64,000 nucleotides of DNA from Escherichia coli (GTDB taxonomy: Bacteria > Pseudomonadota > Gammaproteobacteria > Enterobacterales > Enterobacteriaceae): NCBI GenBank assembly GCA_902499925.1, contig GCA_902499925.1_4130.1; one strand, given 5' to 3'. The position numbers and the translations under genes were made by a program. A model generated the notes under the pieces. That model did not search any database and was not told the origin of the DNA. It saw only the letters and a list, made by a program, of their open reading frames with translations. How positions within the stretch are numbered: position 1 is the first letter of the stretch; each line of letters begins with the position of its first letter. Shown here one piece after another: positions 3,312-64,000 of this stretch.

Positions 3312-4103
3312 TTAGATTTCAAATACAAATTTAGGATCGTAATCGAAGTTCTCACATGCACCACTGTAAGATTCATAACCTCTTGGGTTACAAATGATAC
3401 GAGTTTTTCCAATGTTGTAGTCAAAACTACTATGAACATGACCATGAATCCAAACATCAGCACCCAAATCTTCGATGTACTGGTCCATATCAGAACAATA
3501 ACATCCATTCAGTGAGTCATTCTTGTATCTCGGAGATACACTCTGATAACTTGGTGCATGATGTGTTACCACCACAACCTTGATATCATTATCATTCATT
3601 AGACGAACTGTGTCAACTGAATTTTTGATAAATTGTTTATCCTGATAATGCATGAACTCAACATCATCAGGTTTGAGCTTACGTTTCCACGGTTCTGATG
3701 TTGTTCCATGACGAATGTGTTTATAATCATTCATCTTTTGTTGAGCATCAAACTTAACCAGTGCATTGCCTTTATCAAAGTCAGTCCACAGTGTACTGCC
3801 AACCAGCAGTACACCATCCAGCCATACAAATTTGTTTTGCAAAAAGATGAAATTTGGAATCTCATCTTGCATATCGGATAGTACTTTATTAGTCTTGTGA
3901 ATGTTTGAACCGTAGTACTCATGATTACCAGGAACCAGTACTACATTCTTGAACTGCTTGCACAGGGATTCGATACCAGTACGATAACGACTGCGTTTAG
4001 CTTCATCAAAGTCCCCTGCAATAATCAGCACTGTATCACTGTAATCACCACTATGGAGGTAATCAGTGCCACCGTGTACGTCTGACGTTACAACAAATTT
4101 CAT
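3312..4103 (-). CDS. calcineurin-like metallophosphoesterase
   Basis: Metallophosphoesterase signature blocks DVHG, GDFD, GNHE, HGHVH; AGGAGG RBS upstream of ATG. Confidence 0.75.
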   Translation of the reverse strand: MKFVVTSDVHGGTDYLHSGDYSDTVLIIAGDFDEAKRSRYRTGIESLCKQFKNVVLVPGNHEYYGSNIHKTNKVLSDMQDEIPNFIFLQNKFVWLDGVLLVGSTLWTDFDKGNALVKFDAQQKMNDYKHIRHGTTSEPWKRKLKPDDVEFMHYQDKQFIKNSVDTVRLMNDNDIKVVVVTHHAPSYQSVSPRYKNDSLNGCYCSDMDQYIEDLGADVWIHGHVHSSFDYNIGKTRIICNPRGYESYSGACENFDYDPKFVFEI

Positions 4104-13567: not shown

Positions 13568-14710
13568 CTAAAAATCCTTTAGTACAATTTTCATGTACTT
13601 AATAAGAGTCTCTTTGTAATCGACTTTCTTATTGTTGTACATTGCAAAGGCCAAGCCCTGACGATTCAGTTCATTAGTTAAACACTCCTGAACCTTCTTA
13701 GCGAATTCCTTTCGCTCCAAGTGCTTGTGTTCCTTGACGAAGCTTTCAACTTCATCTTGTAAAGCATTATAGCACGAAAAGACTAGTTGTTCCATTCTTA
13801 ATATCTTTTGAGTAGCATATTCGTCAGTACTGAACAACTGTTTTAAATCATCACTCGAACCATTTAATACAGCTTCATATAAATGGGAATCGATTATAAT
13901 ACTGTCTTTCGTTAAATGCAAAGAACAATACCAGTCGGTTTTGATTTTGCACATTGTACCATTATTTAGGATGCACACAAAACCTTCAATGTCAAGCATT
14001 TTCTTAACTTCTTCAACACTTTCTTTGAATGTAGCACGAACAGGGAAAGTGTAATGAATATCTTTACCTGTCATATTAGTACTGTACTGTGCAAGGCATG
14101 GAAACTTATTACGTAATGCAGAACCACATAATAGTTCACCACTCTTGCGATGGCGAACGTTTAGTACAAATAATTGTTCAACCTGGTATGGTAATACAAT
14201 ACGGTACTCTGGACTTGTATACTCCAGATTAACAGTATAGCCCAAACGGTCTGCTTCGTCAATGTATTGATACAAATTTTGGTTCTCATTGAGAAGACGA
14301 GTACTGTTAATCGCATGGTCTGAATACAATGCAGTATGTGATTTACAACGAATTACACCATCATTATCACGGTAAGTACTGATTACTGAACCATCCAACT
14401 TAGGCATCACTACTGCAATGTCATCGAATGTGGTATCAGCAGGGAACATTGTAGCAGGATTTTCATAAGCATTGAAGAACTTTTTCATAGTACGAGCAGC
14501 ACAACGAATCATATCACCGTCTTCATCAATTTCCCACATAGAACCACGGGTTTCTAATGCATTGGGTTGCATGAAATCGGTATATGATGCTAGACGATAA
14601 CTGAATACACGATATGTTCCACCAGCAGGACTTTTATGATCCACATAAAAGAAAGCCTCACGGGTATTACATAAGTGCATTAAATCTTCATATATTTGTA
14701 AAAGGGTCAT
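13568..14710 (-). CDS. rnlA: RNA ligase 1 (T4 Rnl1/gp63-like)
   Basis: Colinear with T4 Rnl1: TYRVFSY, RGSMWE, adenylation motif KLDGSVISTY, later blocks EGFV and KIKTDWY. Confidence 0.9.
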   Translation of the reverse strand: MTLLQIYEDLMHLCNTREAFFYVDHKSPAGGTYRVFSYRLASYTDFMQPNALETRGSMWEIDEDGDMIRCAARTMKKFFNAYENPATMFPADTTFDDIAVVMPKLDGSVISTYRDNDGVIRCKSHTALYSDHAINSTRLLNENQNLYQYIDEADRLGYTVNLEYTSPEYRIVLPYQVEQLFVLNVRHRKSGELLCGSALRNKFPCLAQYSTNMTGKDIHYTFPVRATFKESVEEVKKMLDIEGFVCILNNGTMCKIKTDWYCSLHLTKDSIIIDSHLYEAVLNGSSDDLKQLFSTDEYATQKILRMEQLVFSCYNALQDEVESFVKEHKHLERKEFAKKVQECLTNELNRQGLAFAMYNNKKVDYKETLIKYMKIVLKDF

Positions 14711-47656: not shown

Positions 47657-48283
47657 TTAGCACCCTTTAACAACTTTTGAAATGTAATCTTCTAATGCAC
47701 CAATGTTCTTTGTATTCGTTCGAACTAAAAGATAACTTAAATTCTCGAACTCCTGAACATAATGCTTAACAGCGTACATGCATCGTAATTCAAAATCTGT
47801 ATGAACCGTTTTGTACTGAAATAACATCTCTTCTGAAGCATCTAAAAGCTCTGTAGCTTGTTCTGTACTGAACTTAAAGGGATTCTGTACTCCTGAACTA
47901 AAACACTTTTGTACGTTCGTCTGGACACCCTGTGATAGATATAATCCTGTACTACCATCTTGTGTTGATATCGAATTGAAACCATTACTTGCAACCATTA
48001 AATCTGAACTCAATACAAATAATAATTTATCTTCCTTATGAATTAATAAATCTGACTTCAGGGATTTTATTCCTGTACTGGTTATATCACCTATACTAAG
48101 ATTGTCACTGAACTTCTCAGCGTTGTTCGCAATGCTCTGGACAAGATTTTTTAATCTCTTAATGGCACTTCTGTCTTTTTCTAATGTATCTAATAAACTC
48201 ATTGAACTCATTGTACTTTCCTTACATATTTGTACTGAACAAAACGGAACTTTGAATGCCATTAATCGACACTTCATGTACAT
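47657..48283 (-). CDS. paralog family A member
   Basis: EEMLFQYKTV. Confidence 0.5.
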   Translation of the reverse strand: MYMKCRLMAFKVPFCSVQICKESTMSSMSLLDTLEKDRSAIKRLKNLVQSIANNAEKFSDNLSIGDITSTGIKSLKSDLLIHKEDKLLFVLSSDLMVASNGFNSISTQDGSTGLYLSQGVQTNVQKCFSSGVQNPFKFSTEQATELLDASEEMLFQYKTVHTDFELRCMYAVKHYVQEFENLSYLLVRTNTKNIGALEDYISKVVKGC

Positions 48284-48566
48284 ATATATTTTGTCTGAAT
48301 ACCTGAAGCAATTGAACTAAACTCTGTTGCATAATAATATGCATCGCTAAATTATCAAAGGCCGTTTCGTATTGGAATCGTGCAGCATCATCTTCTATGA
48401 AATTCGGAACTTGGACTGGATTTTCAAAATTTGTCCTTGTACTGAACTGTACATCATTGTCCTGTACCTTAATACCATATGAATTATCTTTGTTATCAAC
48501 TACATCAAATTCAATTAAACTACCATCTTTACTGACGTTTACTATATAAACTGAAAATCTACTCAT
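48222..48566 (-). CDS. paralog family A-like (divergent)
   Basis: DAARFQYETAF. Confidence 0.45.
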   Translation of the reverse strand: MSRFSVYIVNVSKDGSLIEFDVVDNKDNSYGIKVQDNDVQFSTRTNFENPVQVPNFIEDDAARFQYETAFDNLAMHIIMQQSLVQLLQVFRQNIYVHEVSINGIQSSVLFSTNM

Positions 48567-49204
48567 AATCCTATTTCCTTTAAATCTTCCAAAAATGTTT
48601 CATAATCACTTAAGGAAAAAAAGATATCCGTATCGATGTTCGCATCTAATACATTATACAAATTCTGCATCTGTAACACATCAGGAGCATCAATCAATGA
48701 TTGCTGGAAATAGGCAGCTTCATCTTCCAAAATATCTCTGAATGTTCTCTCTCGTACTCTGTGGTGTACTGAATTGAATATTGATTTCTCATCCTTAAGC
48801 ATTGGTAGGTATCGAATGTACATGTGTTCTCTTAGCTCTGGACTGATGGAACCCCTGAACTGTAACACGTATTCGAAGCACATAGCAACATCCTGAAGGT
48901 AATTGGCACTGTAATTATTGCTGTAAACAATCTTATGACTTCTGAACTCATCATCATTTCTGAACCAATTGTCACCTACTTTGGTGTACTTATGACTAAG
49001 CAATCCACCCTCTAACGCTTTGATGATCTTCAAAATGTTGTGTGCAAATGCATATGATGTATTGTACTTGGCCTGATACATGTGTGCCTCATCTGCCTCA
49101 TTTGGCGTTAAAATATTCACTGAAATGATTATAACACAAAAGCACCACGATGTTAAGCACTCTGTTGTCAAAATCATCTTGTGATGCAGGATGCAAGGAC
49201 GCAT
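48563..49204 (-). CDS. paralog family A member
   Basis: EAAYFQQSLI. Confidence 0.55.
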   Translation of the reverse strand: MRPCILHHKMILTTECLTSWCFCVIIISVNILTPNEADEAHMYQAKYNTSYAFAHNILKIIKALEGGLLSHKYTKVGDNWFRNDDEFRSHKIVYSNNYSANYLQDVAMCFEYVLQFRGSISPELREHMYIRYLPMLKDEKSIFNSVHHRVRERTFRDILEDEAAYFQQSLIDAPDVLQMQNLYNVLDANIDTDIFFSLSDYETFLEDLKEIGL

Positions 49205-49293
49205 TGATGTTAAAATTCACTATATCATTGTGGAATTGGTATGTGAACAAATCAAACTTCGTATGCCTTTGTTTGATATCATCGGCGGTCATA

Positions 49294-49902
49294 TTATATA
49301 TTCAACCCTTTAACAATGGAAATAAATTCTTTGTATACATTTTCAGGTAAAGCTCTACTACCATAAAGAACACTAAATTCAGGTAACATATCCGAAATCT
49401 CTTTCGCTAAATTTATTTCATCCCTGAACATTTGCACAGGCATGATATCCTGTACCAATGATAACTGAAAGAAAAATGATTCAATATCTTCATGCACCTC
49501 TGAATTTAAATAAATCTCTTCTGGAAACTGGTCTGTACTGTAATAATAAAATACGTCAATTCTTTTTTCATTATTTTGTACAAGAGGTAAATTTCTTTCG
49601 TCTCTCTTATTAATATTTGTTTTCCATGACTCAATGTTATTCGGAACCCAAAACTCATAAGGTGTTTTCTCTCCTGAAATATTATCCAGCTTCAATCCAT
49701 AATATTCACCTTCGCCGTACTTCTGCTTCAAAACAATACCTGTACTACTGATGTTTACAATGTACGTATCAACAATCCCCTCTGCGGTAAAAGGAATATT
49801 TAACTCTGAACCTTCAGGGTACTTAGCATTGAATGCATCTAATGCTTTACTAAGCACTGGAATTGCACTTGTACTGTACTTCATTAATTGATCTATGTTC
49901 AT
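49294..49902 (-). CDS. paralog family A member
   Basis: ESFFFQLSLV. Confidence 0.55.
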   Translation of the reverse strand: MNIDQLMKYSTSAIPVLSKALDAFNAKYPEGSELNIPFTAEGIVDTYIVNISSTGIVLKQKYGEGEYYGLKLDNISGEKTPYEFWVPNNIESWKTNINKRDERNLPLVQNNEKRIDVFYYYSTDQFPEEIYLNSEVHEDIESFFFQLSLVQDIMPVQMFRDEINLAKEISDMLPEFSVLYGSRALPENVYKEFISIVKGLNI

Positions 49903-50483
49903 TTTAATGCCCCTGTAATCATACTGAAATTTGAACGATACATATCGTACACTGTACTTTCTTTCTTGTGCACAATGAAATCATAAAGATCGACGAATGC
50001 AGGAATAATAATCTTGAATGATTTATTCTTGTACGTCCCAAACTCAACGGTGCTCAATTTTGCAACGAGCATAGCAACAAAGATTTCTTCTGGACTATGC
50101 AATGTACTGTACTGAAAATAATCCTCTGCACTTATTTCACCCATTGCACTAATATCTTGTACTTGTAATGAAATTTTAAGATAATAATAAGAAAAATCAT
50201 TCTCTGATTTGTTTTGTATTTTGTATTGGTCTATGGGTACATCTCTCATGAACCATAAACGGTCCTGACCATAAAAAGGAATGATTGAATTTGGGGAACC
50301 CAAAAAAACTTCTTCTCTATCAATATCCTTTAACTCAATTTGCATACTGGATGAATTGGCAATAATTAATTCATTAAAAATGTAATGAACCTTGTGTACC
50401 ATCTCTTGTACTGAATTGAAATCATCTGGTATTTTAAAATTTTCCATAGGTATCTCCTTAAAAATGATTACACATTGTACCAT
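49899..50483 (-). CDS. paralog family A member
   Basis: AEDYFQYSTLH. Confidence 0.55.
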   Translation of the reverse strand: MVQCVIIFKEIPMENFKIPDDFNSVQEMVHKVHYIFNELIIANSSSMQIELKDIDREEVFLGSPNSIIPFYGQDRLWFMRDVPIDQYKIQNKSENDFSYYYLKISLQVQDISAMGEISAEDYFQYSTLHSPEEIFVAMLVAKLSTVEFGTYKNKSFKIIIPAFVDLYDFIVHKKESTVYDMYRSNFSMITGALK

Positions 50484-50519
50484 GCATTTGTACTGGTGTC
50501 AAACAAAAAAGCCCATATC

Positions 50520-51017
50520 TTACGATACAGGCATGTTTATTTGAATTTCATTGTACAAATCATCAATATATAGACATGAAAACGATAAACTTTCTTTAAC
50601 TATATTGTTGTGATAAAGCATTTTAAACACTATATAGAAAAATAAATCAATATCATCATGTACTAAATTCTGCTGGAACCACCACTCTTCTGTTAAATCT
50701 TGTGCATTAAAATCATCAGGAACTTCAATTGACGACATATCAACATCTTCTTTGTACTCAAACCACATGTCGTCATTCGGATAACGTTCATGTTTTTCTG
50801 GGTAACAATTGCTGGGATTAAATGCTAAAATATAAAATGTCGTCGCAGAATGTTCTTTATTAAAAAATGAATTATTCCACACCTGATACCTTTCACCAAC
50901 ATCAATCTCTTTTGATACTGATGTTATTGCACATAATGTACGATATATTGTTTCTATTTTGTGAACAAATTTAAAGGCTGCATCTAAACTGAACTCTAAA
51001 TCAGACATGCGGTGCAT
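50520..51017 (-). CDS. paralog family A member
   Basis: EEWWFQQNLV. Confidence 0.55.
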   Translation of the reverse strand: MHRMSDLEFSLDAAFKFVHKIETIYRTLCAITSVSKEIDVGERYQVWNNSFFNKEHSATTFYILAFNPSNCYPEKHERYPNDDMWFEYKEDVDMSSIEVPDDFNAQDLTEEWWFQQNLVHDDIDLFFYIVFKMLYHNNIVKESLSFSCLYIDDLYNEIQINMPVS

Positions 51018-51337
51018 AAAATTATCTCAACTAAAATAAGAACGGTATTGAATTCGAGGCAACCTTTGATACCTTGATTGTACATGTACTTTGCTACTAC
51101 ATATTTCTGTACTAAATTATAATTATTAAATTCCTCAAAATTGTAATTTAGAATGAAATTTGTACTCAAAAATAACTTATGCATCTCTAATGCACTCTGA
51201 TAATATTTGTACAACTCACTGATATCAATACTTTGTAAATCACTTTGTTCATATGTATGATAAGGAATGGCGTCAATTTCAATATTATTAAACCATTCTC
51301 TTAACTTATTAATATCAAATGTATTATTCAGCTTCAT
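50996..51337 (-). CDS. hypothetical protein
   Basis: 113-aa ORF in array, no clear core. Confidence 0.4.
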   Translation of the reverse strand: MKLNNTFDINKLREWFNNIEIDAIPYHTYEQSDLQSIDISELYKYYQSALEMHKLFLSTNFILNYNFEEFNNYNLVQKYVVAKYMYNQGIKGCLEFNTVLILVEIILCTACLI

Positions 51338-51890
51338 AACTCAATACCTCCATTAAGCACTCATAAACACCATCAATCGCATAAGCACAAAAACTGAAAT
51401 TAATTTTGTTATTCTTGTGTAATGGACTATTGTATACTGTACTCATTATGACATTATAAAATAACAAACGCACTGGTACAAGCATTGAACCTTGGAAAAA
51501 TTCTTCCTCTGATTTATATGTATTGTACTCTATTGCTTTGTTCGTTTCTGTATCATATTTTACCATTACTAACGGGGCATTTTTATTATACCATGCGTAC
51601 TCTAAATCATTCTTTCCAATAACAGCACCAGGGGCAAAATCCAAAAGACTAATAACACTACGGGCATTTGGGGTATCAGGTGTATTGAATCGTTTATCAA
51701 AATGTCTCGTGCACGCAATATATGTATTGTACTTCGATGGAATAATACCAATACATTTGTGGATGTGACGCTTGTAATCTTTCTGTGCATTATATAAGGC
51801 TGCAACAATACAAGCTAACTTTTGTCCCATAAGGATTGCATTAGCGTAGGTGTACTGAATTTCATTGTACTCACTGTACGTCGATGTCAT
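51324..51890 (-). CDS. paralog family A member
   Basis: SEEEFFQGSML. Confidence 0.55.
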   Translation of the reverse strand: MTSTYSEYNEIQYTYANAILMGQKLACIVAALYNAQKDYKRHIHKCIGIIPSKYNTYIACTRHFDKRFNTPDTPNARSVISLLDFAPGAVIGKNDLEYAWYNKNAPLVMVKYDTETNKAIEYNTYKSEEEFFQGSMLVPVRLLFYNVIMSTVYNSPLHKNNKINFSFCAYAIDGVYECLMEVLSYEAE

Positions 51891-52182
51891 AATACGCTCC
51901 TACCTCATAATCTTTCTTGCTTTGGAATTCATTAACGACTTTCTGTATATTTCTTAATGTTACCATGTCATGTCCGTACATGTCAACCACCAATTGCATT
52001 TGGAAAAATTCTTCTTCAGATAATGTATTAAAATCTATAAAATAATCCGTAACAACCTGTGCGTCTAAATTTGCCATGTACCATTGATTGGTATCGACCT
52101 CTTTAACCAAATTCCATGCATCTGAATCGGATTCTAATTCTACATATATTAATGTTAATGTATAAAGCATTTTATACTTCAT
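51871..52182 (-). CDS. paralog family A member
   Basis: LSEEEFFQMQLV. Confidence 0.55.
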   Translation of the reverse strand: MKYKMLYTLTLIYVELESDSDAWNLVKEVDTNQWYMANLDAQVVTDYFIDFNTLSEEEFFQMQLVVDMYGHDMVTLRNIQKVVNEFQSKKDYEVGAYYDIDVQ

Positions 52183-55880: not shown

Positions 55881-56121
55881 ATTTCTCTTTATTAGCTTGT
55901 TTGGTTTTATAGTGAATTAAATCTATTAATGTAATCAAGTACAACTTCAAAAAGTACTCTTGATGGTTCGTACCTAATGATACAAAGAACTTATGCTCAT
56001 AAATCAAAACCTGTTTCACTTCAAAGGGACACTTAATCCTCTGTATAGGTTTAAGTAAATGATAGTACTTATTAAATCTATGATACATTTCTAGTTCTGT
56101 CAGTACTTTCATATTAAACAA
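55870..56121 (-). CDS. paralog family B member
   Basis: LGTNHQEYFLKLYL. Confidence 0.55.
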   Translation of the reverse strand: MFNMKVLTELEMYHRFNKYYHLLKPIQRIKCPFEVKQVLIYEHKFFVSLGTNHQEYFLKLYLITLIDLIHYKTKQANKEKYEN

Positions 56122-56335
56122 TCACTCCATTAGCTGTAGCATCACGTAAAGCTCTCAAATACTTCTGTACTGCTTGCTCTTGCTTATTTGTACCTAAAAG
56201 TATATACATCCATAATTCACTGTAATGTACATCTTGTGTATAAGGGTTGTTGTAACTTTTTGATAATATAGCATCAAATTCAGATGCATGAACCCTTGTG
56301 AACTTAAGAATATCTTGTTGTGTTATGATTCTCAT
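56114..56335 (-). CDS. paralog family B member
   Basis: LGTNKQEQAVQKYL. Confidence 0.55.
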   Translation of the reverse strand: MRIITQQDILKFTRVHASEFDAILSKSYNNPYTQDVHYSELWMYILLGTNKQEQAVQKYLRALRDATANGVIV

Positions 56336-56547
56336 ATCTTTTCCTGTACTATCTGTATAAGAATCCCTATGTGTGAATTAACAGTTCTCTCTTGATGCTG
56401 TGTTCCTAAGAGTGTCAGTACTATCATCTCTGAACGCAAAAGATTTTTCTGAAGTTCACTTATATCAGTCCTCATATCAAGATTCAGAAATTCTTGACTA
56501 TTTTTTCTGAATAGTGCCAAGTACTCTTGATTTGATATTTCCTTCAT
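56332..56547 (-). CDS. paralog family B member
   Basis: LGTQHQERTVNSHI. Confidence 0.55.
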   Translation of the reverse strand: MKEISNQEYLALFRKNSQEFLNLDMRTDISELQKNLLRSEMIVLTLLGTQHQERTVNSHIGILIQIVQEKI

Positions 56548-56774
56548 AGTTTATCCCTGATGCCATTTAAAAGTGCTCTAATATGCTCCTGTACGAATTT
56601 GTACTGACTGTCTGTTCCTAGAGTGAGTAGCAATCTTAAATCTGAACTTTTGATGTGATATTCTAAATCATTATTTGATTCTTGCATCAGTTTCTTAAAG
56701 GATGAGAAGTTTGCAGCCATTAGTTCAATGTATTCTGCTGTTCCTAGTGGTTTGTGTATTGGCTGTTTGTGCAT
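56544..56774 (-). CDS. paralog family B member
   Basis: LGTDSQYKFVQEHI. Confidence 0.55.
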   Translation of the reverse strand: MHKQPIHKPLGTAEYIELMAANFSSFKKLMQESNNDLEYHIKSSDLRLLLTLGTDSQYKFVQEHIRALLNGIRDKL

Positions 56775-56986
56775 TTTAATTTTATTACCCTTTTGAGTGT
56801 ATTAATGTAATTATACACATTGGCTTCTTGATAGTTAGTTCCCAGTGTAGCTTGAACATAGATTTCATTTAACTTAATAATTTTATCAGTATCTGGTAGT
56901 TTTGATGTGTTAATGGCAAATAACTTCAAAAACAGTCCATTTAAGATTGTTAGGTATTCTTCGTCGGTAATGATTCGCATTTGCAT
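56744..56986 (-). CDS. paralog family B member
   Basis: LGTNYQEANVYNYI. Confidence 0.6.
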   Translation of the reverse strand: MQMRIITDEEYLTILNGLFLKLFAINTSKLPDTDKIIKLNEIYVQATLGTNYQEANVYNYINTLKRVIKLKCTNSQYTNH

Positions 56987-57192
56987 TGGATAAACCTTTT
57001 TAGTTCTTTGATGTAATCATTAATATTGCATTCTTGATAGTTAGTCCCTAGGGTAGCTTGAACATAGATTTCACTCATTAGAATATTTTTTTCTTCATCA
57101 GGTAAATCTGTGGTCTTTGCTATATACAATTTTAGAATTAAACTACTTAATAGTTCGTGGTATTCACTTGGTGAAAGGATTTTCATTTGCAT
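56950..57192 (-). CDS. paralog family B member
   Basis: LGTNYQECNINDYI; near-duplicate of 56744..56986 at DNA level. Confidence 0.6.
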   Translation of the reverse strand: MQMKILSPSEYHELLSSLILKLYIAKTTDLPDEEKNILMSEIYVQATLGTNYQECNINDYIKELKRFIQCKCESLPTKNT

Positions 57193-57398
57193 GTTCTCAG
57201 TACAGATTCTTTAAGTTCATCGATGTAGTCCTCAACGAATTGCTCTTGGAAGTTAGTTCCAATATATAAAAGAACTCTTAAATCTGCTCTAAGTAACTCT
57301 TTTTCATCATCATCTATATCAGACAATGTTATGTTTAAGAATTTACTTGTATTAAAGATTAACAATTCTGTTTGTTCACTGTGGCTTAAAATTTTCAT
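57183..57398 (-). CDS. paralog family B member
   Basis: IGTNFQEQFVEDYI. Confidence 0.55.
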   Translation of the reverse strand: MKILSHSEQTELLIFNTSKFLNITLSDIDDDEKELLRADLRVLLYIGTNFQEQFVEDYIDELKESVLRTCK

Positions 57399-57606
57399 AA
57401 TCTCTTTTTGCTTTCCTCGACAGTAGGTACAAATACGATTCTTCGTATTGTGCTTGGAAGTTTGTGTTTAAGAGTCGAAACAACTTCTGTTCTTCTAGAA
57501 CGAGTTGCTTATCTTCATAACAACGGTAGCGTATCAACTTTTTGTATTCGATGTTGATTACATCCATTACTATAAGCCCATGTTCATCATCTGTCAAGTG
57601 CTTCAT
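57376..57606 (-). CDS. paralog family B member
   Basis: LNTNFQAQYEESYL. Confidence 0.5.
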   Translation of the reverse strand: MKHLTDDEHGLIVMDVINIEYKKLIRYRCYEDKQLVLEEQKLFRLLNTNFQAQYEESYLYLLSRKAKRDYENFKPQ

Positions 57607-57845
57607 GCTTTTTTTCTTTTCCTGATGTGTTTAGTTAAAAGGTATATTAGTTTTCTGATGTATTCTTCCTGATAGTTTGTTCCTAATAGTGCAAGAAGTT
57701 TTGCTTCAACTAAAGCTAATTGACGTTCTTCAAATGTGTGTTCCAGTATGTACTTTGGGTTTGATTTTTTAGAAATTGCACTATTAGTTTTCATTACAAT
57801 CTTATGATATTCATTAACTGTTAGGATTTTTAAATTCTTGAGCAT
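57603..57845 (-). CDS. paralog family B member
   Basis: LGTNYQEEYIRKLI. Confidence 0.55.
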   Translation of the reverse strand: MLKNLKILTVNEYHKIVMKTNSAISKKSNPKYILEHTFEERQLALVEAKLLALLGTNYQEEYIRKLIYLLTKHIRKRKKA

Positions 57846-58071
57846 GTACCTTTTCCTTTATAGAGAATTTAAGATATCGAAGCATACTTTCAATGTAATA
57901 CTCTTGTCTGTCAGTTCCAAGAAAGTACAGGAGTTGAATGTATAAAACTTCTGCACTCCTTTCGGCATGTGACTTGTTTGTGTCGTTTGGAAGTTGATTT
58001 GTAAGTTTTCTGGATTTAATTAATCGTTCTTTTAACTCATCGTCTGTTAAGTATTTCATTTGCATTTGCAT
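57814..58071 (-). CDS. paralog family B member
   Basis: LGTDRQEYYIESML. Confidence 0.55.
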   Translation of the reverse strand: MQMQMKYLTDDELKERLIKSRKLTNQLPNDTNKSHAERSAEVLYIQLLYFLGTDRQEYYIESMLRYLKFSIKEKVHAQEFKNPNS

Positions 58072-58297
58072 TTACTTTTTCCTTAATAGTGATTTTAAGA
58101 TATCTAATCATACGTGCAACATATTCCTCTTGTCTATCAGTTCCCAGAAGATATGGTAGTGATTGGAATAATACTTCTGCACTCCTTTCTGCTGGGGTTT
58201 GGTTTAGGTCAATTGGACGTTTATTGGTATATCTCTTGGCACGAACTAATCTCTCGACGTATTCATTATAGGTTAAGTATATCATTTCATTTTGCAT
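58037..58297 (-). CDS. paralog family B member
   Basis: LGTDRQEEYVARMI; twin of 57814..58071. Confidence 0.55.
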   Translation of the reverse strand: MQNEMIYLTYNEYVERLVRAKRYTNKRPIDLNQTPAERSAEVLFQSLPYLLGTDRQEEYVARMIRYLKITIKEKVNANANEILNRR

Positions 58298-58533
58298 TTA
58301 ATGTTTCTTACGTAAATTGTCTGGATTAAACAATCAATCCAAGTTTGAATATATTGGTTTTGATACTGTGTGCCTAAGAGACTCTGCATTTTAAACTCTG
58401 CTTCAAGTTCATATCTCTTTTCTATAGAAAAGCTCAAATGACCATATTCTTTATCGTATCTTCTCAGTGCTTCCCCAATTCTATCAAATCTTTCTGCTAA
58501 TCTGATGTTATTCACAATATTCATCGCATTCAT
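58282..58533 (-). CDS. paralog family B member
   Basis: LGTQYQNQYIQTWI. Confidence 0.55.
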   Translation of the reverse strand: MNAMNIVNNIRLAERFDRIGEALRRYDKEYGHLSFSIEKRYELEAEFKMQSLLGTQYQNQYIQTWIDCLIQTIYVRNIKCKMK

Positions 58534-58808
58534 CGATCAGTACACCTCAGTGGTTGGGTCATTTGATGAAAGTACAGCTTACCTCTGATTTCCAGTAGTA
58601 ACTCCGCGATTAAGCGATTTACTTCTGTATCTTGATAGTTTGTTCCTAAGAATACACCCATCTTTAACTCACGCATCATAATCATTTTCTTACTGTGTTG
58701 AATTTCTGGGTTGTGATAGATTGTATTACGTTTGTGCGTAATTTTTGTCATACGCTCGGTATATTCATCTTTACTTAAATTAATCATTTTTATTCTCCAA
58801 AGCATCAC
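58530..58808 (-). CDS. paralog family B member
   Basis: LGTNYQDTEVNRLI. Confidence 0.55.
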   Translation of the reverse strand: MMLWRIKMINLSKDEYTERMTKITHKRNTIYHNPEIQHSKKMIMMRELKMGVFLGTNYQDTEVNRLIAELLLEIRGKLYFHQMTQPLRCTDR

Positions 58809-59019
58809 ATTTATTTTCGATACAAATCATTAGTTCTCTAAGATAGTTTTTTATCTTACCTTCCTGATGGTTCGTCCCCAGGAAGTTGCATAACTCTGCT
58901 TCTATTATTTTGATTCTTCTGGTGTCAGGTTTCAATTTTTTGTTATTGAAGATTTGAATCCTTATATCCCTTGATGCATTTAAACGTTTTTGATATTCAT
59001 GGAAAGATAAATTAATCAT
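58780..59019 (-). CDS. paralog family B member
   Basis: LGTNHQEGKIKNYL. Confidence 0.55.
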   Translation of the reverse strand: MINLSFHEYQKRLNASRDIRIQIFNNKKLKPDTRRIKIIEAELCNFLGTNHQEGKIKNYLRELMICIENKCDALENKND

Positions 59020-59234
59020 TTACTTTGTATCTCTCTCTTGAGGGCATCAATTAACAACAGTACAGCATTCTCTTGATAGTTTGTTCCTAAGACTGAAAGC
59101 ATCTTAATCTCATTTACTACAATCAACTTCTTTGAGCGTTCAATAATGTTACTATTATAAACGGCGTTACGTGCTGGATAAGTTTTTGCAAGACGAACAT
59201 AATATTCATCTTTACTTAAATTAATCATTTGCAT
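59016..59234 (-). CDS. paralog family B member
   Basis: LGTNYQENAVLLLI. Confidence 0.55.
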   Translation of the reverse strand: MQMINLSKDEYYVRLAKTYPARNAVYNSNIIERSKKLIVVNEIKMLSVLGTNYQENAVLLLIDALKREIQSK

Positions 59235-59443
59235 TTACTTTGGATCTCCTTGACTAATGCATCAACCCACATGTCTATATACATTTGTTGATAGTTTGTC
59301 CCTATGAGTGCCCCTGCATAGAGTTCAGCTACCATTGCATGTTTTAGGTTGGCAGGGATGCTCTTATCAGATTGAATCTTTACTCTTCTGTTGGCACATG
59401 TTTTCAGAAGCTTAACATATTCGTAACCTATTAATTTTCTCAT
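59225..59443 (-). CDS. paralog family B member
   Basis: IGTNYQQMYIDMWV. Confidence 0.55.
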   Translation of the reverse strand: MRKLIGYEYVKLLKTCANRRVKIQSDKSIPANLKHAMVAELYAGALIGTNYQQMYIDMWVDALVKEIQSKCK

Positions 59444-59655
59444 TCTTTTGATATCACCTTGTTACGTAAGGCACTTAACAATACGTCAGTGTAGATGTTT
59501 TGATAGTTTGTTCCTACGAATACACCCAACTTCATTTCAGCTATTATAACACATTTGTCCTCTTGTGCAATAGACTTGTCTAAAGAAATACTAACAACTT
59601 TCCTTCTTATAGCTTGTAACCTCCAATGATACTGATACTCATTTAGGGTTATCAT
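59440..59655 (-). CDS. paralog family B member
   Basis: VGTNYQNIYTDVLL. Confidence 0.55.
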   Translation of the reverse strand: MITLNEYQYHWRLQAIRRKVVSISLDKSIAQEDKCVIIAEMKLGVFVGTNYQNIYTDVLLSALRNKVISKE

Positions 59656-59890
59656 TCTCTCGCCTCCATTTCTCGGTTCTAATGTGTTGACATTGTGCTT
59701 CGATGAACATATCTATTGATTTGGCAATTGCTTTTTTATCTGTGCCTGTCATCAGTACAAGCATCTCGGCCTCACAGTGAAGTAAACGCATGATATCATA
59801 GGGTAATATTCCAGATACCGTGTCATAGTGTTTCTGTGCCAGTGTCTGTAATAGTTTACAATACATTTTGTGATTTAGTCTGTGTCGCAT
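59639..59890 (-). CDS. paralog family B-like (divergent)
   Basis: TGTDKKAIAKSIDMFI. Confidence 0.45.
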   Translation of the reverse strand: MRHRLNHKMYCKLLQTLAQKHYDTVSGILPYDIMRLLHCEAEMLVLMTGTDKKAIAKSIDMFIEAQCQHIRTEKWRRENDNPK

Positions 59891-60147
59891 TGTTTATTCC
59901 ATTCTTTTTTGGCCTTGATGGTTTTATATTGGATTTGGTTTCTTAATGCTGATAAGTATCGTTGAATGAACAGATCTTGATAGTTTGTTCCAATGAATTT
60001 CATCAGATAAAGTTCACCGTTGATAACATCCACTTCAGGTGCACCATATAAGGCATTGTTTTTTCTAAGGGTATGGATTAAAGAGAATAGGGCAGTTTGA
60101 TACTCAACTCCTGATAAAGTCTTCATGTTTTGTGAGCCAATAATCAT
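59875..60147 (-). CDS. paralog family B member
   Basis: IGTNYQDLFIQRYL. Confidence 0.55.
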   Translation of the reverse strand: MIIGSQNMKTLSGVEYQTALFSLIHTLRKNNALYGAPEVDVINGELYLMKFIGTNYQDLFIQRYLSALRNQIQYKTIKAKKEWNKQCDTD

Positions 60148-60361
60148 CTAGTTTATCCTGTATAACATTCATTAATTGTTCGACATATTCTGTGCAAAAC
60201 TTATCTTGATATTGAGTCCCCATAAAGTACAACAACCATAGCTCATTAACTTTAGCTCGCATTTGGTTCCATGTAAGGCTGGGGTCATCGTAGACTATCC
60301 TTGCTATAGGGGTTAGTTTACGGACTATAGTTTCATATTCATCTAGTGTTAAGTGTTTCAT
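60104..60361 (-). CDS. paralog family B member
   Basis: MGTQYQDKFCTEYV. Confidence 0.55.
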   Translation of the reverse strand: MKHLTLDEYETIVRKLTPIARIVYDDPSLTWNQMRAKVNELWLLYFMGTQYQDKFCTEYVEQLMNVIQDKLDDYWLTKHEDFIRS

Positions 60362-60576
60362 TTACATTTGTCCCTTATTAGATCAGTGAGGGCAACTATG
60401 TGTGCAACAACATACTCTTCCTGAAAGTTCGTCCCCAGTACAGCCATCATGCGTATATCGGTGGTGTTTATCCTGTGTTCCCTTACACATAAACCTTCTG
60501 TGTGAGGAAGTGTAAAATATTTGTTTATTGCAGCAACGATAATTTTATTCTTCTCGGAGTTACTTAAATGTTTCAT
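60358..60576 (-). CDS. paralog family B member
   Basis: LGTNFQEEYVVAHI. Confidence 0.55.
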   Translation of the reverse strand: MKHLSNSEKNKIIVAAINKYFTLPHTEGLCVREHRINTTDIRMMAVLGTNFQEEYVVAHIVALTDLIRDKCK

Positions 60577-60785
60577 AGTTTGCTCTTAATGTATTTCTGG
60601 AGTGCAATTATATACTCATTCAAGAAATGCTCCTGATAGTCTGTGCCGAGGAATGCACCCAATAGTATATCATTTTCCAATACTAATGCTAAGTTTAAAT
60701 CATCAGTCTCTTCATATACTATGAGAATTTCAAGTTGTCTGGCAGCGACGCGTTCGGTATATAGATTTGAGTTAATGCTATTCAT
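60573..60785 (-). CDS. paralog family B member
   Basis: LGTDYQEHFLNEYIIALQKYIKSKL. Confidence 0.55.
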   Translation of the reverse strand: MNSINSNLYTERVAARQLEILIVYEETDDLNLALVLENDILLGAFLGTDYQEHFLNEYIIALQKYIKSKL

Positions 60786-60994
60786 AGTTTACTCTTAATG
60801 TAATTCTGGAGTGCAATTAAGTATTCCCCTACATAATACACCTGAAAGTCTGTATCCAAAAATGCACCCATAAGTAAATCTTTTTCTAATACCCTTGATA
60901 AGTTAAGGTCTGCATTTGAAAGGTATATAAGTAAGATTTCACCCTGTGCGGAATTGAAACGTTTCTTATATTCTTCTGGTGTTAAAAAAATCAT
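60782..60994 (-). CDS. paralog family B member
   Basis: LDTDFQVYYVGEYLIALQNYIKSKL; twin of 60573..60785. Confidence 0.55.
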   Translation of the reverse strand: MIFLTPEEYKKRFNSAQGEILLIYLSNADLNLSRVLEKDLLMGAFLDTDFQVYYVGEYLIALQNYIKSKL

Positions 60995-61200
60995 AGTTTC
61001 CTCTTAATATCTTCTATTAAAAATCGAATCCAATCGTCAACATACTCTTCCTGATGGTTTGTGTTCAGTACAGCCAACATGCGGATCTCTGCTCTTGCAA
61101 CTTCAATTGCAGTTTTAGGAAGGTCTTTTCTGATATCCAACATTAAGTCCATGTATCTCAAGATAAGACCGTATGATTGGGTTCGTGTTATAGTTTTCAT
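60991..61200 (-). CDS. paralog family B member
   Basis: LNTNHQEEYVDDWI. Confidence 0.5.
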   Translation of the reverse strand: MKTITRTQSYGLILRYMDLMLDIRKDLPKTAIEVARAEIRMLAVLNTNHQEEYVDDWIRFLIEDIKRKL

Positions 61201-61397
61201 TGTTTCCTCGTGGATAATATTTCATTTTTCAATGCATCCATATATTGAATCACCCATCTTCCCTGATAGCTTGTTCCCAATGTAATCAAAAGGTATAACT
61301 CAATTCGTTCTAAGTTTGTGTCTGTGTTATAAATCTTTACCATGTTTTTACGTAACAGTTCTTGATAATCTTCTTTATTTAAAATACGCATTTTCAT
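61197..61397 (-). CDS. paralog family B member
   Basis: LGTSYQGRWVIQYM. Confidence 0.5.
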   Translation of the reverse strand: MKMRILNKEDYQELLRKNMVKIYNTDTNLERIELYLLITLGTSYQGRWVIQYMDALKNEILSTRKQ

Positions 61398-61591
61398 AGT
61401 CTACCTTTTATGTCCCTTCGTAATTCTTGTAAGTATAGTTCGATATACTTTTCTTGATAGTTAGTTCCTATGAAAAGTTTCATAACCAATTCACGCTTAT
61501 ATGCAATACCACGGATATGTGACATATGTAGGATATATGCCATGTTGGATATGAGTGTGTGGTTGTGCTCTTCTTGAGTTAAAATACGCAT
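61394..61591 (-). CDS. paralog family B member (first gene of the tandem array in transcription order)
   Basis: IGTNYQEKYIELYL; track ORF 61394..61621 trimmed to internal Met (MRILTQ) preceded by GGAG. Confidence 0.55.
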   Translation of the reverse strand: MRILTQEEHNHTLISNMAYILHMSHIRGIAYKRELVMKLFIGTNYQEKYIELYLQELRRDIKGRL

Positions 61592-61619
61592 AGGGACTCC
61601 ATTAAAAATAATATCAATC

Positions 61620-61650
61620 ATATAATATACAATTCATATAAAAAGTCAAT
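61620..61650 (-). promoter_or_regulatory. sigma70-like promoter candidate upstream of family B array
   Basis: Minus-sense TTGACT-~16nt-TATTAT/ATATTA with TG upstream; approximate. Confidence 0.4.
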
Positions 61651-61840
61651 AACATTTTATTAGTAATACCCCTTTATCGAAGTCGCTAAGGTTACCCGCC
61701 CTTTAGCCCCCTACGCATTTTGCCATAGTCCAATCCCTTTTTATTCATAAAAGTCAAGGGATTACCTATGCATTTTTTTAACGCTGAAATTTAAAAATGC
61801 CTTGACTTTTTTATGATTCAGTACTAAATCCTTTTACGCA

Positions 61841-62050
61841 TTAATCCTTCGTTACGCTTACGATTATCTGTGTATCCCCATAGTCCTGCCATACTTCCAC
61901 GCCAGCCGCCGCCCTGGTTAGTCGTGCTGTCATCTGCTTAATGGTCTTAGGCTTTAGTGGAACCTGTTGCAGTACTGTACGCATAGCACTATCGACGTTA
62001 TCATGTACGCCTGCAATAGTGCCTAGAACGTTGTATACTGTATAGATCAT
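61841..62050 (-). CDS. hypothetical protein
   Basis: 69-aa ORF in GC-richer early-type block. Confidence 0.45.
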   Translation of the reverse strand: MIYTVYNVLGTIAGVHDNVDSAMRTVLQQVPLKPKTIKQMTARLTRAAAGVEVWQDYGDTQIIVSVTKD

Positions 62051-62118
62051 GTGTATGTACTCCTGATATAGTTAAGGCCGCTAGAGAGCGGCCTATGATG
62101 TTTGATGATGTGTAACGC

Positions 62119-62520
62119 TTACAACCCTAAGATAGTACGTGCTTCGTTGCGTTCCGTCCACAACTGCATGATGTGAGCAAGTAAGTCCTTGCTAATGTAT
62201 CCGGTGTTCATAGCTTCACGGATAGATACATCATAAGCACCGAAGCCAGTGCGAACGATACGCACATCATTCAGGTTAGTGTTATAGATACCGCCGAGAT
62301 CAACGGCTTCGAATACTGCATCAACAGAATATTCATTGTTGCCATCGTTGAAGTTTTCCAGTGCAATAGTATTGGATACCGCCCAACGTTTGCAGTTTCC
62401 AATGATGCGGCACTGTTCCGGTTGGATAGTGCCATTACTTACAGCGTACTCCAGTGCATCTTTACCAAAAGTCCGAGCCAGTACTAAAACGTCAGCGAAG
62501 GAAGTGATTGAGAAGGTCAT
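62119..62520 (-). CDS. hypothetical protein
   Basis: Track ORF 62119..62583 trimmed to Met (MTFSIT) that has AAGGAG RBS 8 nt upstream; the upstream codons overlap promoter/leader. Confidence 0.55.
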   Translation of the reverse strand: MTFSITSFADVLVLARTFGKDALEYAVSNGTIQPEQCRIIGNCKRWAVSNTIALENFNDGNNEYSVDAVFEAVDLGGIYNTNLNDVRIVRTGFGAYDVSIREAMNTGYISKDLLAHIMQLWTERNEARTILGL

Positions 62521-62537
62521 GATAAAACTCCTTAATT

Positions 62538-62602
62538 TAGGAGGGAGAACCATTTCCCCCTCTCTATGTAAAACATTATACATGAATCTAAGTACTATGC
62601 AA
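62538..62602 (-). promoter_or_regulatory. sigma70-like promoter plus conserved leader hairpin (copy 1)
   Basis: Minus-sense TTGCAT-16nt-TGTATAAT then leader GAGGGGGA-aauggu-UCUCCCUC hairpin before RBS. Confidence 0.6.
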
Positions 62603-62609
62603 GTACTTT

Positions 62610-62942
62610 TTACATTTTGATACCTGGATTCAGGTAGCGGTGAGATCCATATTCTGGATCGGTTTCGGCCCAGTACTGTAAATCTATAGTACCTTTAGCG
62701 TTAATCTTGTCTACCAGCTTATTCATCTTAGCGTATACTACATCAGCATCGATGCGTTTAAAGCCAGTGGCTTTAGTGAAGTAGTAGTGATTTGCTTCAC
62801 TATCATTAAGGATGTACCGAGCACCGTTTGCCGTTTGTGCAATAATGATTGAGTATTCTACGTTACGGTCGAGGCCGTCAATGAATACAGAGGAAACATT
62901 AGTACGGATGAAAGCTTTAACGATAGCGATTGAAGTAGTCAT
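62610..62942 (-). CDS. hypothetical protein
   Basis: 110-aa ORF; AGGAG RBS. Confidence 0.5.
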   Translation of the reverse strand: MTTSIAIVKAFIRTNVSSVFIDGLDRNVEYSIIIAQTANGARYILNDSEANHYYFTKATGFKRIDADVVYAKMNKLVDKINAKGTIDLQYWAETDPEYGSHRYLNPGIKM

Positions 62943-62996
62943 TTTGAATCTCCTAACTTTGTGGGCCGTCGCACCGTTGCCGCCCTACGAGATACA

Positions 62997-63025
62997 TTAT
63001 CGCAGTACTGATATACTTTGTCAAT
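62997..63025 (-). promoter_or_regulatory. sigma70-like promoter candidate
   Basis: Minus-sense TTGACA-17nt-GATAAT upstream of 62610..62942. Confidence 0.5.
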
Positions 63026-63147
63026 ACTTTTTTATTAATAGTTTCCACTCCACCAGCAGATAGTTACTCACCGTTATTAACTATATATTTTGGGTACACC
63101 TATGCACCCTGTGGGCTAGTTTTTGTCTATGCGTATATAATAGCAAA

Positions 63148-63177
63148 GGGACTGACCGGAGTCAATCCCTTTTTTTA
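63148..63177. terminator. terminator-like hairpin (strand ambiguous)
   Basis: GGGACUGAC-cgga-GUCAAUCCC; T7 run follows on plus strand, weaker U-tract on minus strand downstream of 63188..63388. Confidence 0.45.
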
Positions 63178-63187
63178 TTCTTTTTTG

Positions 63188-63388
63188 TTAGATGATTCTC
63201 CAATCATCAACGATCATGGTAAGATACCGAACCAGTGATCCGAGTGATTCGTGTTCTCGATAGTCTGCCGCTCCACCAGCGGTACAAGTACAGCCGATTA
63301 AGCCGTTTTGTAGTTCCTGGATCTTTACGTCGATCTGGTTGGCTTTAGCTTCTTTCAGTACTTCAACCAGGGCGATAGCGATAGACAT
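63188..63388 (-). CDS. hypothetical small protein
   Basis: 66-aa ORF with GGAG RBS, immediately downstream of consensus promoter. Confidence 0.5.
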   Translation of the reverse strand: MSIAIALVEVLKEAKANQIDVKIQELQNGLIGCTCTAGGAADYREHESLGSLVRYLTMIVDDWRII

Positions 63389-63410
63389 AATGTTTTACTC
63401 CAAACTATTG

Positions 63411-63471
63411 GCGGGAGAACTATTCCCCCGCTCTATGTAAAACATTATACATTACTGGTTAGTACTGTCAA
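63411..63471 (-). promoter_or_regulatory. sigma70-like promoter plus conserved leader hairpin (copy 2)
   Basis: Minus-sense TTGACA-16nt-TGTATAAT (perfect consensus) then leader GCGGGGGA-auagu-UCUCCCGC hairpin. Confidence 0.65.
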
Positions 63472-63478
63472 ATAGTTT

Positions 63479-63736
63479 TTATGAAATATCTTCGATGTAG
63501 TCGGCCCATTTCATTTTTTCAGTACTGTCAATGGCGACCGGATTATTTGGATCAAACCATTCACCATCACCGCAATACATACCCACGGCTACGGTTTTAT
63601 AGCCATCCTGGGCCGCACTCCACGACATTGCACGATAGATATGGCCTTTAACTGGTTGCAGTACTGGTAACGTTTTATGGTCTTCTACGTAGGCCATAGC
63701 TTGAGGATTTACCCGATATTGTGTGAACTGATCCAT
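63479..63736 (-). CDS. hypothetical protein
   Basis: 85-aa ORF. Confidence 0.5.
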   Translation of the reverse strand: MDQFTQYRVNPQAMAYVEDHKTLPVLQPVKGHIYRAMSWSAAQDGYKTVAVGMYCGDGEWFDPNNPVAIDSTEKMKWADYIEDIS

Positions 63737-63818
63737 TATGTTTCCCCTTGTAGTTAGTAAAGTTATTACATCAGTACTATCAAGCTATGTCAATAGTACT
63801 GAAATAAAACTTTTAGAT

Positions 63819-64000
63819 TAGATTATTGAGGCCGTCAATGGTAGACTCACTTTCTTCTTTCTCCCATTGTCGGTAGTACTTCCATGCTTCATGATAGGTG
63901 GCGATTAGTTCATCTTTTTGATCCTGGTTACATGCCAGTACTGAATCACGGTGAGCGGTGTTATAGATAGAATCGAATGATTTCTTCTCTTCTGCCAGGT
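63819..64000 (-). CDS. hypothetical protein, C-terminal part only (gene starts beyond right edge)
   Basis: Open minus frame entering from right edge and ending ...IDGLNNLI near 63819. Confidence 0.4.

Follow-up and report, generated by a model that had tools for sequence, protein, structure and literature searches.

Probable mobile promoter-leader cassettes with a conserved leader hairpin in the terminal repeat of an Asteriusvirus-type jumbo coliphage

The stretch of DNA analyzed here, a window of 64,000 nucleotides from an Escherichia coli assembly (GCA_902499925.1, contig GCA_902499925.1_4130.1), carries near its end two small minus-strand genes, 62119..62520 and 63188..63388, each preceded by a promoter and a short leader with a hairpin. 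A first-pass annotation had pointed out these two genes and described the elements upstream of them as copies of one repeat. Both genes are indeed present as open reading frames (ORFs), and the repeat is real: the window contains the 21-mer TGTATAATGTTTTACATAGAG at 62562-62582 and at 63431-63451, on the minus strand in either case, and nowhere else, and its dinucleotide shuffles give no match. Each element begins with the stop codon of the gene before it and ends at the ATG of the gene that follows. The parts of the two copies are listed here, with transcription starts predicted from promoter geometry.

62597..62612, minus strand: upstream part of copy 1, with the stop codon of the upstream gene (62610-62612), an A-rich stretch, AGTACT and the -35 hexamer
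62597-62602, minus strand: -35 hexamer TTGCAT of copy 1, abutted by AGTACT at 62602-62607
62591-62596, minus strand: second AGTACT of copy 1, within the spacer
62575..62580, minus strand: -10 hexamer TATAAT of copy 1, spacer of 16 nt
Between TATAAT and the hairpin, minus strand: start region of copy 1, GTTTTACATAGA
62567, minus strand: predicted +1 of copy 1, the A of a conserved CAT and the 8th nucleotide past the hexamer
62562-62541, minus strand: leader hairpin of copy 1, GAGGGGGAA-ATGG-TTCTCCCTC, about +6 to +27, 3′ arm as RNA UUCUCCCUC
Between hairpin and Shine-Dalgarno (SD) sequence, minus strand: linker CTAAATT of copy 1
62528-62533, minus strand: SD AAGGAG of copy 1, before the ATG (62518-62520) of a 133-aa ORFan, 62119..62520
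63461..63481, minus strand: upstream part of copy 2, with the stop codon of the upstream gene (63479-63481) and an A-rich stretch
63466-63471, minus strand: -35 hexamer TTGACA of copy 2, its last base overlapped by AGTACT at 63461-63466
63444..63449, minus strand: -10 hexamer TATAAT of copy 2, spacer of 16 nt; 12/12 consensus match in the promoter scan
63436, minus strand: predicted +1 of copy 2, an A
63431-63411, minus strand: leader hairpin of copy 2, GCGGGGGAA-TAG-TTCTCCCGC, loop as RNA UAG and 3′ arm as RNA UUCUCCCGC
63398-63401, minus strand: SD GGAG of copy 2, before the ATG (63386-63388) of a 66-aa ORFan, 63188..63388

The start region is the same in both copies. Each stem has 9 pairs, one of them G·U, and the predicted energies are -15.9 kcal/mol for copy 1 and -14.5 kcal/mol for copy 2, whose hairpin is also the centroid structure in the fold of its leader. 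A62561/T62542 of copy 1 corresponds to C63430/G63412 of copy 2, that is, an A-U pair is replaced by C-G with the pairing intact. Direct reading of the sequence thus confirms the paired A-to-C and U-to-G change that had been claimed for the hairpin. The -10 element had also been called extended; this should be corrected, as the TG at -14/-13 abuts TATAAT and does not form the canonical TGnTATAAT, and the promoter scan gives no TG for copy 2. The genes flanking the two copies are unrelated to each other. The downstream proteins of the family match only PHROGs of function unknown and no Pfam family over the cut-off. A 154-aa ORF listed by program at 62119..62583 begins in the -10 region of copy 1 and is an annotation artefact.

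A BLAST search with the region gives 46 phage records, of which 27 share 95-99% identity with it; all are Asteriusvirus-type jumbo coliphages of the PBECO4/121Q group, 350-385 kb in size, and the window is assigned to the same group. The corresponding DNA of phage vB_Ec-M-J (OQ718158; 96.6% identity) forms the inner end of a direct terminal repeat, annotated there with 21,525 bp. For fEgEco12 a terminal repeat of 20,993 bp was confirmed through restriction digests (PMC13070987). Mapped onto vB_Ec-M-J, the window overlaps the repeat only at about 61,690-64,000, which corresponds to its final ~2.3 kb out of ~21 kb. The remaining ~61.7 kb is a dense array of small minus-strand genes and contains no cassette of the kind described here. 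In PA5oct, a distant relative, the terminal-repeat genes are transcribed early (PMC7318152). The two transcripts had been called early ones, which is plausible from their location in the terminal repeat, the sigma70-type promoters and the PA5oct precedent. As a source of mapped transcription starts PA5oct is not comparable, as its terminal repeat is operon-like and lacks per-gene cassettes.

We read the upstream regions of all 53 genes of the vB_Ec-M-J repeat and made a simple scan for TATAAT followed after 8-14 nt by a hairpin. The 21.5 kb contain 26 cassettes, all in gene orientation, and these precede nearly every small early gene (ORFan) of the terminal repeat. The order of the parts is an A-rich part with AGTACT, a sigma70-type -35 hexamer (TTGACA or TTGCAT), a spacer of 16-17 nt, TATAAT, a start region ..TTTACAT.., the hairpin, an A-rich linker, the SD and the ATG. 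The columns TATAAT..TT..AT are invariant across the 26 cassettes; AGTACT abuts the -35 in 18 of them and stands directly before TATAAT in 10. The hairpin follows TATAAT at 8-14 nt (mode 12), about 5 nt past the predicted start, and has a run of G in the 5′ arm and a run of C/U in the 3′ arm. Stems range over 7-9 pairs, usually 8-9, and all 26 hairpins fold as predicted with -11 to -17 kcal/mol. If +1 is the A of CAT, the predicted 5′ tail before the stem measures 1-7 nt (mean 5.0 ± 1.1), and 3 nt in the GCAUA-GGGGG subfamily. The distance from the end of the stem to the ATG is 20.0 ± 2.1 nt and is taken up by an A-rich unstructured linker of ~20 nt that carries the SD. Loops vary freely within one genome (AUGG, ACGG, UAG, CAC, AUGA, AAAC, GCGG), and the loop-proximal stem GGGGA[G/A]AA...UUC[U/C]CCC is conserved in the 26 copies.

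When the 26 cassettes were aligned with MAFFT, their arms came out of register, and this alignment was unusable for pair counts. Instead we used a loop-anchored seed and a covariance model (R1) built from 12 of the 26. On the 64 kb window this model finds exactly copies 1 and 2, with 38.3 bits for the hairpin of copy 1 and 21.8 bits (E = 7e-4) for that of copy 2, and nothing else below E = 1. A BLAST search with one cassette returns 10-16 places per genome and 26-32 in records that hold both repeat copies. A scan of 61500-64000 against Rfam with E up to 10 gave nothing relevant, the sole hit being a chance match to a miRNA. The pair first described thus comprises all members in the window, but it is a small part of a family that has about 26 members per terminal repeat and extends over several phage families.

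The hairpin is selected for its pairing, and its structure is conserved rather than its sequence. Within one genome there are 14 distinct stems. The two arms of one copy pair at 7.79 of 8 positions; when arms are combined across copies the figure is 6.52 of 8, and none of 20,000 permutations reaches the observed value. For covariation we used an alignment of 19 sequences derived from the covariance model; in this alignment, which was fitted to the model so that its pair counts are to be read with caution, the inner 8 pairs are formed in 19/19 sequences, 91% of the cells are paired, and four pairs have double-sided changes (18 cells), the stems varying at 4 of 8 positions. Covariation is scored at 0.365, compared with 0.186 in shuffles (0/500). 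When the partner is slid by 1-3 columns, the paired cells fall from 91% to 61-69%. A search for further copies with tabulation of covariation had been proposed with the first-pass annotation; carried out on the terminal repeat of the relative, it yields the 26 cassettes, with pairing held across the 14 stems.

A cassette definition blind to the hairpin was then applied to all fetched loci and gave 151 distinct leaders. A hairpin of at least 7 bp lies within 10 nt of the predicted start in 87 of these, which amounts to 38 distinct stems across related phages. In IMG/VR, queried with a pattern of the promoter end and the G-run only, a complete hairpin follows in 20 of 23 matches with cassette context, and most of the 16 matches without cassette context have none (hand counts). 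Some members are imperfect. A single G·A mismatch in a 10-bp stem is kept in several phages, one EJP2 copy has two mismatches and one UPEC06 copy has one. Several members, copies 1 and 2 among them, contain G·U pairs, which correspond to A·C mismatches on the opposite strand.

The same architecture with other stems is found in Klebsiella phage fENko-Kae01, Erwinia phage Hallingskeid, Yersinia phage fHe-Yen9-03, the Vequintavirinae phage UPEC06 and the Stephanstirmvirinae phage FBKp34. The stems in these lineages include GGGGGAA/TTCCCCC, GGGGGTA/TATCCCC, GCGGCA/TGCCGC, GGGAAGAG/CTCTTCCC and GGGTAAGC/GCTTACCC. In fENko-Kae01 the positional ortholog of copy 1 has an identical hairpin, and the remainder of the leader has diverged. 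A UPEC06 cassette (locus L006, 4320-4405) is almost identical to an Asteriusvirus one (locus L002, 7850-7935), from AAAGTA.TTGCAAAGTAA.TCGAATAAAGTATAATACATTACATCA through to the end ...AAGGAAACTAAAATG; the hairpin at 7849 of the UPEC06 locus is likewise identical to that at L002 1699. Such near-identity suggests a recent exchange between unrelated coliphage lineages.

The cassettes also move within the terminal repeat. Between the repeats of vB_Ec-M-J and E9.1 there are 9 indel junctions, 6 of which have an end at most 60 nt from a hairpin cassette, and at 4 of the junctions 67-101 nt of homology are common to both flanks. Overlap of this kind is what recombination between two copies of the cassette leaves behind. 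For example, gene EcMJ_044 was lost between near-identical cassettes at L002 17746 and 18240. An apparent insertion of ~1.4 kb suggested by multi-piece BLAST rows was rejected; the extra pieces are matches to paralogous cassettes and the real difference is one gene lost between two cassettes. In EJP2 the C-G hairpin stands before the ortholog of the 402-nt gene, and the A-U hairpin with a promoter of the copy 1 type before the ortholog of the 201-nt gene. Hairpin variants have therefore been swapped between orthologous loci and move as units through cassette exchange. It follows that the difference between copies 1 and 2 is real family covariation, not necessarily arisen in place. The first-pass annotation had taken this one change as an argument for a functional structure. 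The argument holds on the far stronger pairing across the family; the change itself may not be an independent compensatory mutation.

In T4-type phages (RB49/phi1, PST, nt-1) a comparable unit has been described as the promoter-early stem-loop (PeSL) cassette (PMC2839356, Arbiol et al. 2010; PMC4122927, Comeau et al. 2014). In a PeSL, an A/T-rich region that begins with the stop codon upstream is combined with a promoter of sigma70 consensus, a stem-loop, often of poly-G and then poly-C, the SD and the ATG; such units recur between ORFans, whose modular shuffling they mediate (PMC2839356). We consider it very probable that the elements in the window are PeSL-like mobile promoter-leader cassettes with a selected hairpin.

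As to their function, the best explanation as a whole is that they are self-contained early expression cassettes with a protective 5′-proximal leader hairpin, a proposal whose chances we judge to be evenly balanced. Expression could proceed in the following steps. Host RNA polymerase would start at the A of CAT, the 8th nucleotide after TATAAT as placed by promoter geometry. The hairpin would then be the 5′-proximal structure of each early mRNA and would most likely protect the message from 5′-end-dependent decay by RppH/RNase E. Base pairing at the 5′ terminus blocks the entry of these enzymes, and 5′-terminal hairpins reportedly stabilise the mRNA in work on ompA and T7 gene 10. The hairpin would also lock away the SD-like G-run with the anti-SD-like C/U-run, so that the ribosome binding site could work alike before any gene. 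In transcripts that read through from upstream it would serve as an intercistronic barrier or protect the 3′ end. The specific mechanism, that is, the hairpin as stabiliser and insulator of early mRNAs, is put forward tentatively and is the somewhat more doubtful part of the model.

Several observations weigh against a protective leader hairpin. The transcription start has been placed from promoter geometry, and the predicted single-stranded tail of 5 nt is at the upper edge of the reported block to 5′-end-dependent decay. Replacement of the 5′ arm in silico lowers the predicted accessibility of the SD in most copies, but copies 1 and 2 gain no accessibility from the hairpin. For copy 1 the leader with the first codons (62506-62567, minus strand) has an alternative fold of lower energy (-20.5 kcal/mol, 37% of the ensemble) in which ACCUUCUC in the coding region is the partner of the G-rich arm, and the SD that of CUCCU. 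The SD would be sequestered in this competing fold, which copy 2 does not have; we treat it as a putative structure specific to the gene. The same promoter is followed by a leader without a hairpin in 64 of the 151 distinct leaders, and the hairpin is therefore modulatory and not essential. These leaders resemble the same leader with the module removed (ATCAA|CCACTGATAAGGA... compared with ATCAA|hairpin|ACCAATAAAAGGA...), which makes the hairpin an optional module. All 38 stems keep the polarity of a G-run on the 5′ side and a C-run on the 3′ side, which simple stability does not require and which may reflect common descent or some sequence requirement. Hairpins in sense and antisense are about equally stable (-11.6 and -10.8 kcal/mol), so pairing alone is no proof of a role at the RNA level. 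Finally, the members of the family are paralogs that arose by duplication and exchange, and the cell counts of the covariation analysis overstate the number of independent events.

The hairpin might instead be a terminator or attenuator that stops or dampens read-through from upstream, or attenuates its own promoter unless a factor permits read-through. One stem-loop of an RB49/phi1 PeSL cut reporter expression as strongly as rrnB T1 (PMC2839356), and the RB49 stem-loops likewise lack a classical U tract. The hairpin is also the only structure in the intergenic gaps of ~85 nt, and the equivalent hairpin of FBKp34 is annotated as a terminator in its record. Such a role, however, predicts the placement seen in PeSLs and not a position in the leader, where the hairpin lies downstream of its own start and would abort every transcript at about +30. 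As an intrinsic terminator it does not qualify: the 8 nt after the stem contain only 1.7 T on average, and the tails are A-rich without a U tract. A terminator scan of the region lists neither leader hairpin stem; its sole hit in the leader of copy 1 is a weak 5-bp stem CTCCT...AGGAG (62528-62543) that overlaps the end of the hairpin and the SD. Hairpins with a T-run do exist nearby, at 63145-63172 of the window and at L002 ~4892 and ~15790. We regard a terminator or attenuator as rather unlikely. Also unlikely is that the hairpin forms a target site which some protein of the phage or the host recognises, with a translational repressor, a nuclease and an antitermination factor as candidates; this protein would co-regulate the early genes of the terminal repeat, for instance in a shut-off after the early phase. 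The constant polarity, the loop-proximal stem conserved in 26 copies and the fixed distance of the hairpin to SD and ATG would fit such a site, as would the presence of the hairpin on one class of early promoters and not another, a split that a regulon-style signal predicts. But the loops vary freely within one genome, which speaks against a protein that reads the loop, and the stems vary at half of the 8 positions. Further, reading of the leaders revealed no boxA-like partner motif, there is no Rfam match, and the module is present in phage families with unrelated gene sets. Of similarly low probability is the wider idea that the hairpin is no passive stabiliser but a cis-acting control signal, by which early mRNAs of one class from the terminal repeat would be marked to share the same fate. 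This fate could be selective survival while the phage turns host RNases on host mRNA, read-through, dependent on a factor, of a promoter-proximal attenuator or a timed shut-off by a hairpin-binding protein, and the signal would spread between unrelated enterobacterial phage families inside the mobile promoter-leader cassette.

The inverted repeat could also matter mainly as DNA, either as a recombination substrate for the shuffling of ORFans or as a promoter-proximal element for initiation or escape, with the RNA hairpin being incidental. Indel junctions and cassette swaps are indeed located in the cassettes, one RB49 crossover was mapped inside a PeSL loop (PMC2839356), and the stabilities in sense and antisense are similar. 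Homologous recombination, however, needs identity and not an inverted repeat, and it would not select compensatory changes; pairing is held through 38 different stems in spite of sequence change, and the G·U pairs of several members, both window copies included, are A·C mismatches on the other strand. A purely DNA-level role appears quite improbable to us. That the two copies are alike merely by recent duplication and the double change arose by chance is highly improbable. The exact shared 21-mer and the exchange of paralogous cassettes between loci would agree with it, but the two copies stand among unrelated genes, all sequences of the alignment form the inner 8 pairs, pairing is kept in distant phages with different stems, and IMG/VR has the hairpin in 20 of 23 matches with cassette context. 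The counts across the family already disfavour this explanation.

Further features of the terminal repeat lie between and around the two copies.

62996..63024, minus strand: related cassette promoter (TTGACA, 17-nt spacer, GATAAT) for gene 62610..62942, with AGTACT before the -10 (promoter scan)
63145..63172, minus strand: terminator-like hairpin of 12 pairs with a T-rich tail, after gene 63188..63388

The promoter at 62996-63024 was rejected as a member of the hairpin family; its leader has only a weak 4-bp GGGC/GCCC stem and folds no better than shuffles (z-score +0.49). The terminator-like hairpin contains the -35 hexamer TTGACT of the next promoter, an overlap of terminator and promoter as in one PeSL subclass. 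This sigma70-like promoter (TTGACT 63160-63165 and TATTAT 63137-63142, minus strand) precedes a unit without ORF at 63025-63137, minus strand, which contains GCCCACAGGGTGCATAGGTGTACCC (motif at 63092-63116). Similar promoters with the CCCACAGGGTGCGG motif recur without an ORF in loci L002, L003, L004, L009 and L010, some of them on the opposite strand. The unit could be a small RNA; its fold is no better than that of shuffles and it has no Rfam hit. Several intergenic regions of 210-425 nt in the terminal repeat (L002 ~3715-3830 and ~14170-14290; L023, L025, L009) also open with the cassette promoter. They continue as ATCAGGACGGGGAA...CCCGTTAAGTAG.CCAGGAGTAAG....CGAAAAACTCCCCTGAT with complementary ends, a repeated non-coding unit of ~90 nt, possibly structured, before a second promoter. 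Just inside the unique region beside the terminal repeat, at 56000-61621 (minus strand), there is a tandem array of ~20 paralogous genes of 66-90 aa with 4-nt overlaps and a common motif ...LGTNYQE.., apparently served by one promoter at 61622-61649.

The most striking side result, separate from the cassettes, is a roughly 11-22-fold excess of the palindrome AGTACT. The window contains 198 copies compared with 17.5 expected (11x), and the terminal repeat of vB_Ec-M-J 142 compared with 6.6 (22x). The excess is 13-21x in EJP2, fENko-Kae01, Hallingskeid and fHe-Yen9-03; AGTACT counts in the Vequintavirinae and Stephanstirmvirinae loci are without excess. In the window 176 of the 198 copies lie inside ORFs and occupy all three codon phases (68/45/63), which points to a signal at the DNA level rather than a codon effect. 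AGTACT is nearly missing at 48000-52000 (0 per 4 kb) and 56000-60000 (4 per 4 kb), compared with 9-22 elsewhere. The interval 48000-52000 overlaps a run of minus-strand ORFs of ~190-210 aa. A limited literature search found no paper on this excess.

For these poorly studied jumbo phages the cassettes suggest a concrete plan of early expression, in which each ORFan of the densely filled terminal repeat has a strong host-type promoter of its own and a standard leader of 47 nt. Annotation errors that recur in these phages are also explained by the cassettes: hairpins are taken for terminators, and start codons are placed inside the hairpin. Thus a start codon was called in the hairpin loop for EcMJ_009 (L002 5251), a 30-aa coding sequence was called across a UPEC06 cassette (L006 3969-4061), and the hairpin in the FBKp34 record was labelled as a terminator (L007 4036-4079). 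The cassettes also offer easy landmarks by which the gain and loss of genes can be traced in these phages, and for E. coli they are compact, naturally standardised expression parts.

Among known systems, the leader of T7 gene 10 (phi10), GGGAGACCACAACGGUUUCCCUC, has at the very start of a highly expressed mRNA a G-rich 5′ arm and a C/U-rich 3′ arm, as does the ompA leader. We verified the T7 sequence: a 5′ hairpin GGGAGACC...GGUUUCCCUC is followed by an A/U-rich unstructured stretch and a strong SD. T7 transcripts, however, start inside the stem, whereas a tail of ~3-5 nt is predicted here, and as a member of the family the phi10 hairpin scores only 7.3 bits with the R1 model. It is therefore an analogy only. 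Lambda-type nut sites also place a short leader hairpin just downstream of an early promoter. The stems here are longer (8-9 bp compared with 5 bp in boxB), the loops vary over 3-5 nt in contrast to the conserved pentaloop, and there is one hairpin per gene and not one per operon. A site for RNase III is unlikely, as the stems have 7-9 bp, rarely 10-12 bp, compared with the ~20 bp (about two turns) needed. In the papers that we found on Asteriusvirus, CBB, phAPEC6, fEgEco12 and Certrevirus sigma70-like promoters are mentioned, and a leader hairpin is not described in any of them.

The closest described kind of element is the PeSL cassette. Both have the same list of parts: among these, the A-rich part opens with the stop codon of the preceding gene, the promoter is of the sigma70-consensus type (predicted in our case), and the stable intergenic stem-loop has a G tract in front of a C tract. 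In both, many copies stand among the small ORFans of a variable early region, here 26 in the repeat and none in the adjoining 61.7 kb, and in both the cassettes are sites of gene gain, loss and exchange, here through recombination between cassettes at the indel junctions and in the EJP2 swap. The placement of the stem-loop differs. In the RB49 PeSLs, which we read directly, the stem-loop lies inside the promoter and outside its own transcript, a placement in keeping with the terminator or attenuator role that its authors put forward and tested in part. In the present family the stem begins 8-14 nt (mode 12) past the -10, at ~+6, and thus follows the start region and lies in the leader, a placement that the terminator role claimed for PeSLs suits poorly. 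The move of the hairpin into the transcript calls for a function different from that of PeSL. Also, PeSLs belong to Straboviridae, whereas the cassettes here belong to Rak2-like jumbo phages and are confined to the direct terminal repeat.

In summary, the PeSL idea of mobile promoter/stem-loop cassettes by which ORFans are shuffled, known before from T4-type phages, can be extended to Rak2-like jumbo phages, Vequintavirinae and Stephanstirmvirinae. New is a stem-loop that is placed in the leader, and this in the terminal repeat of a jumbo phage.

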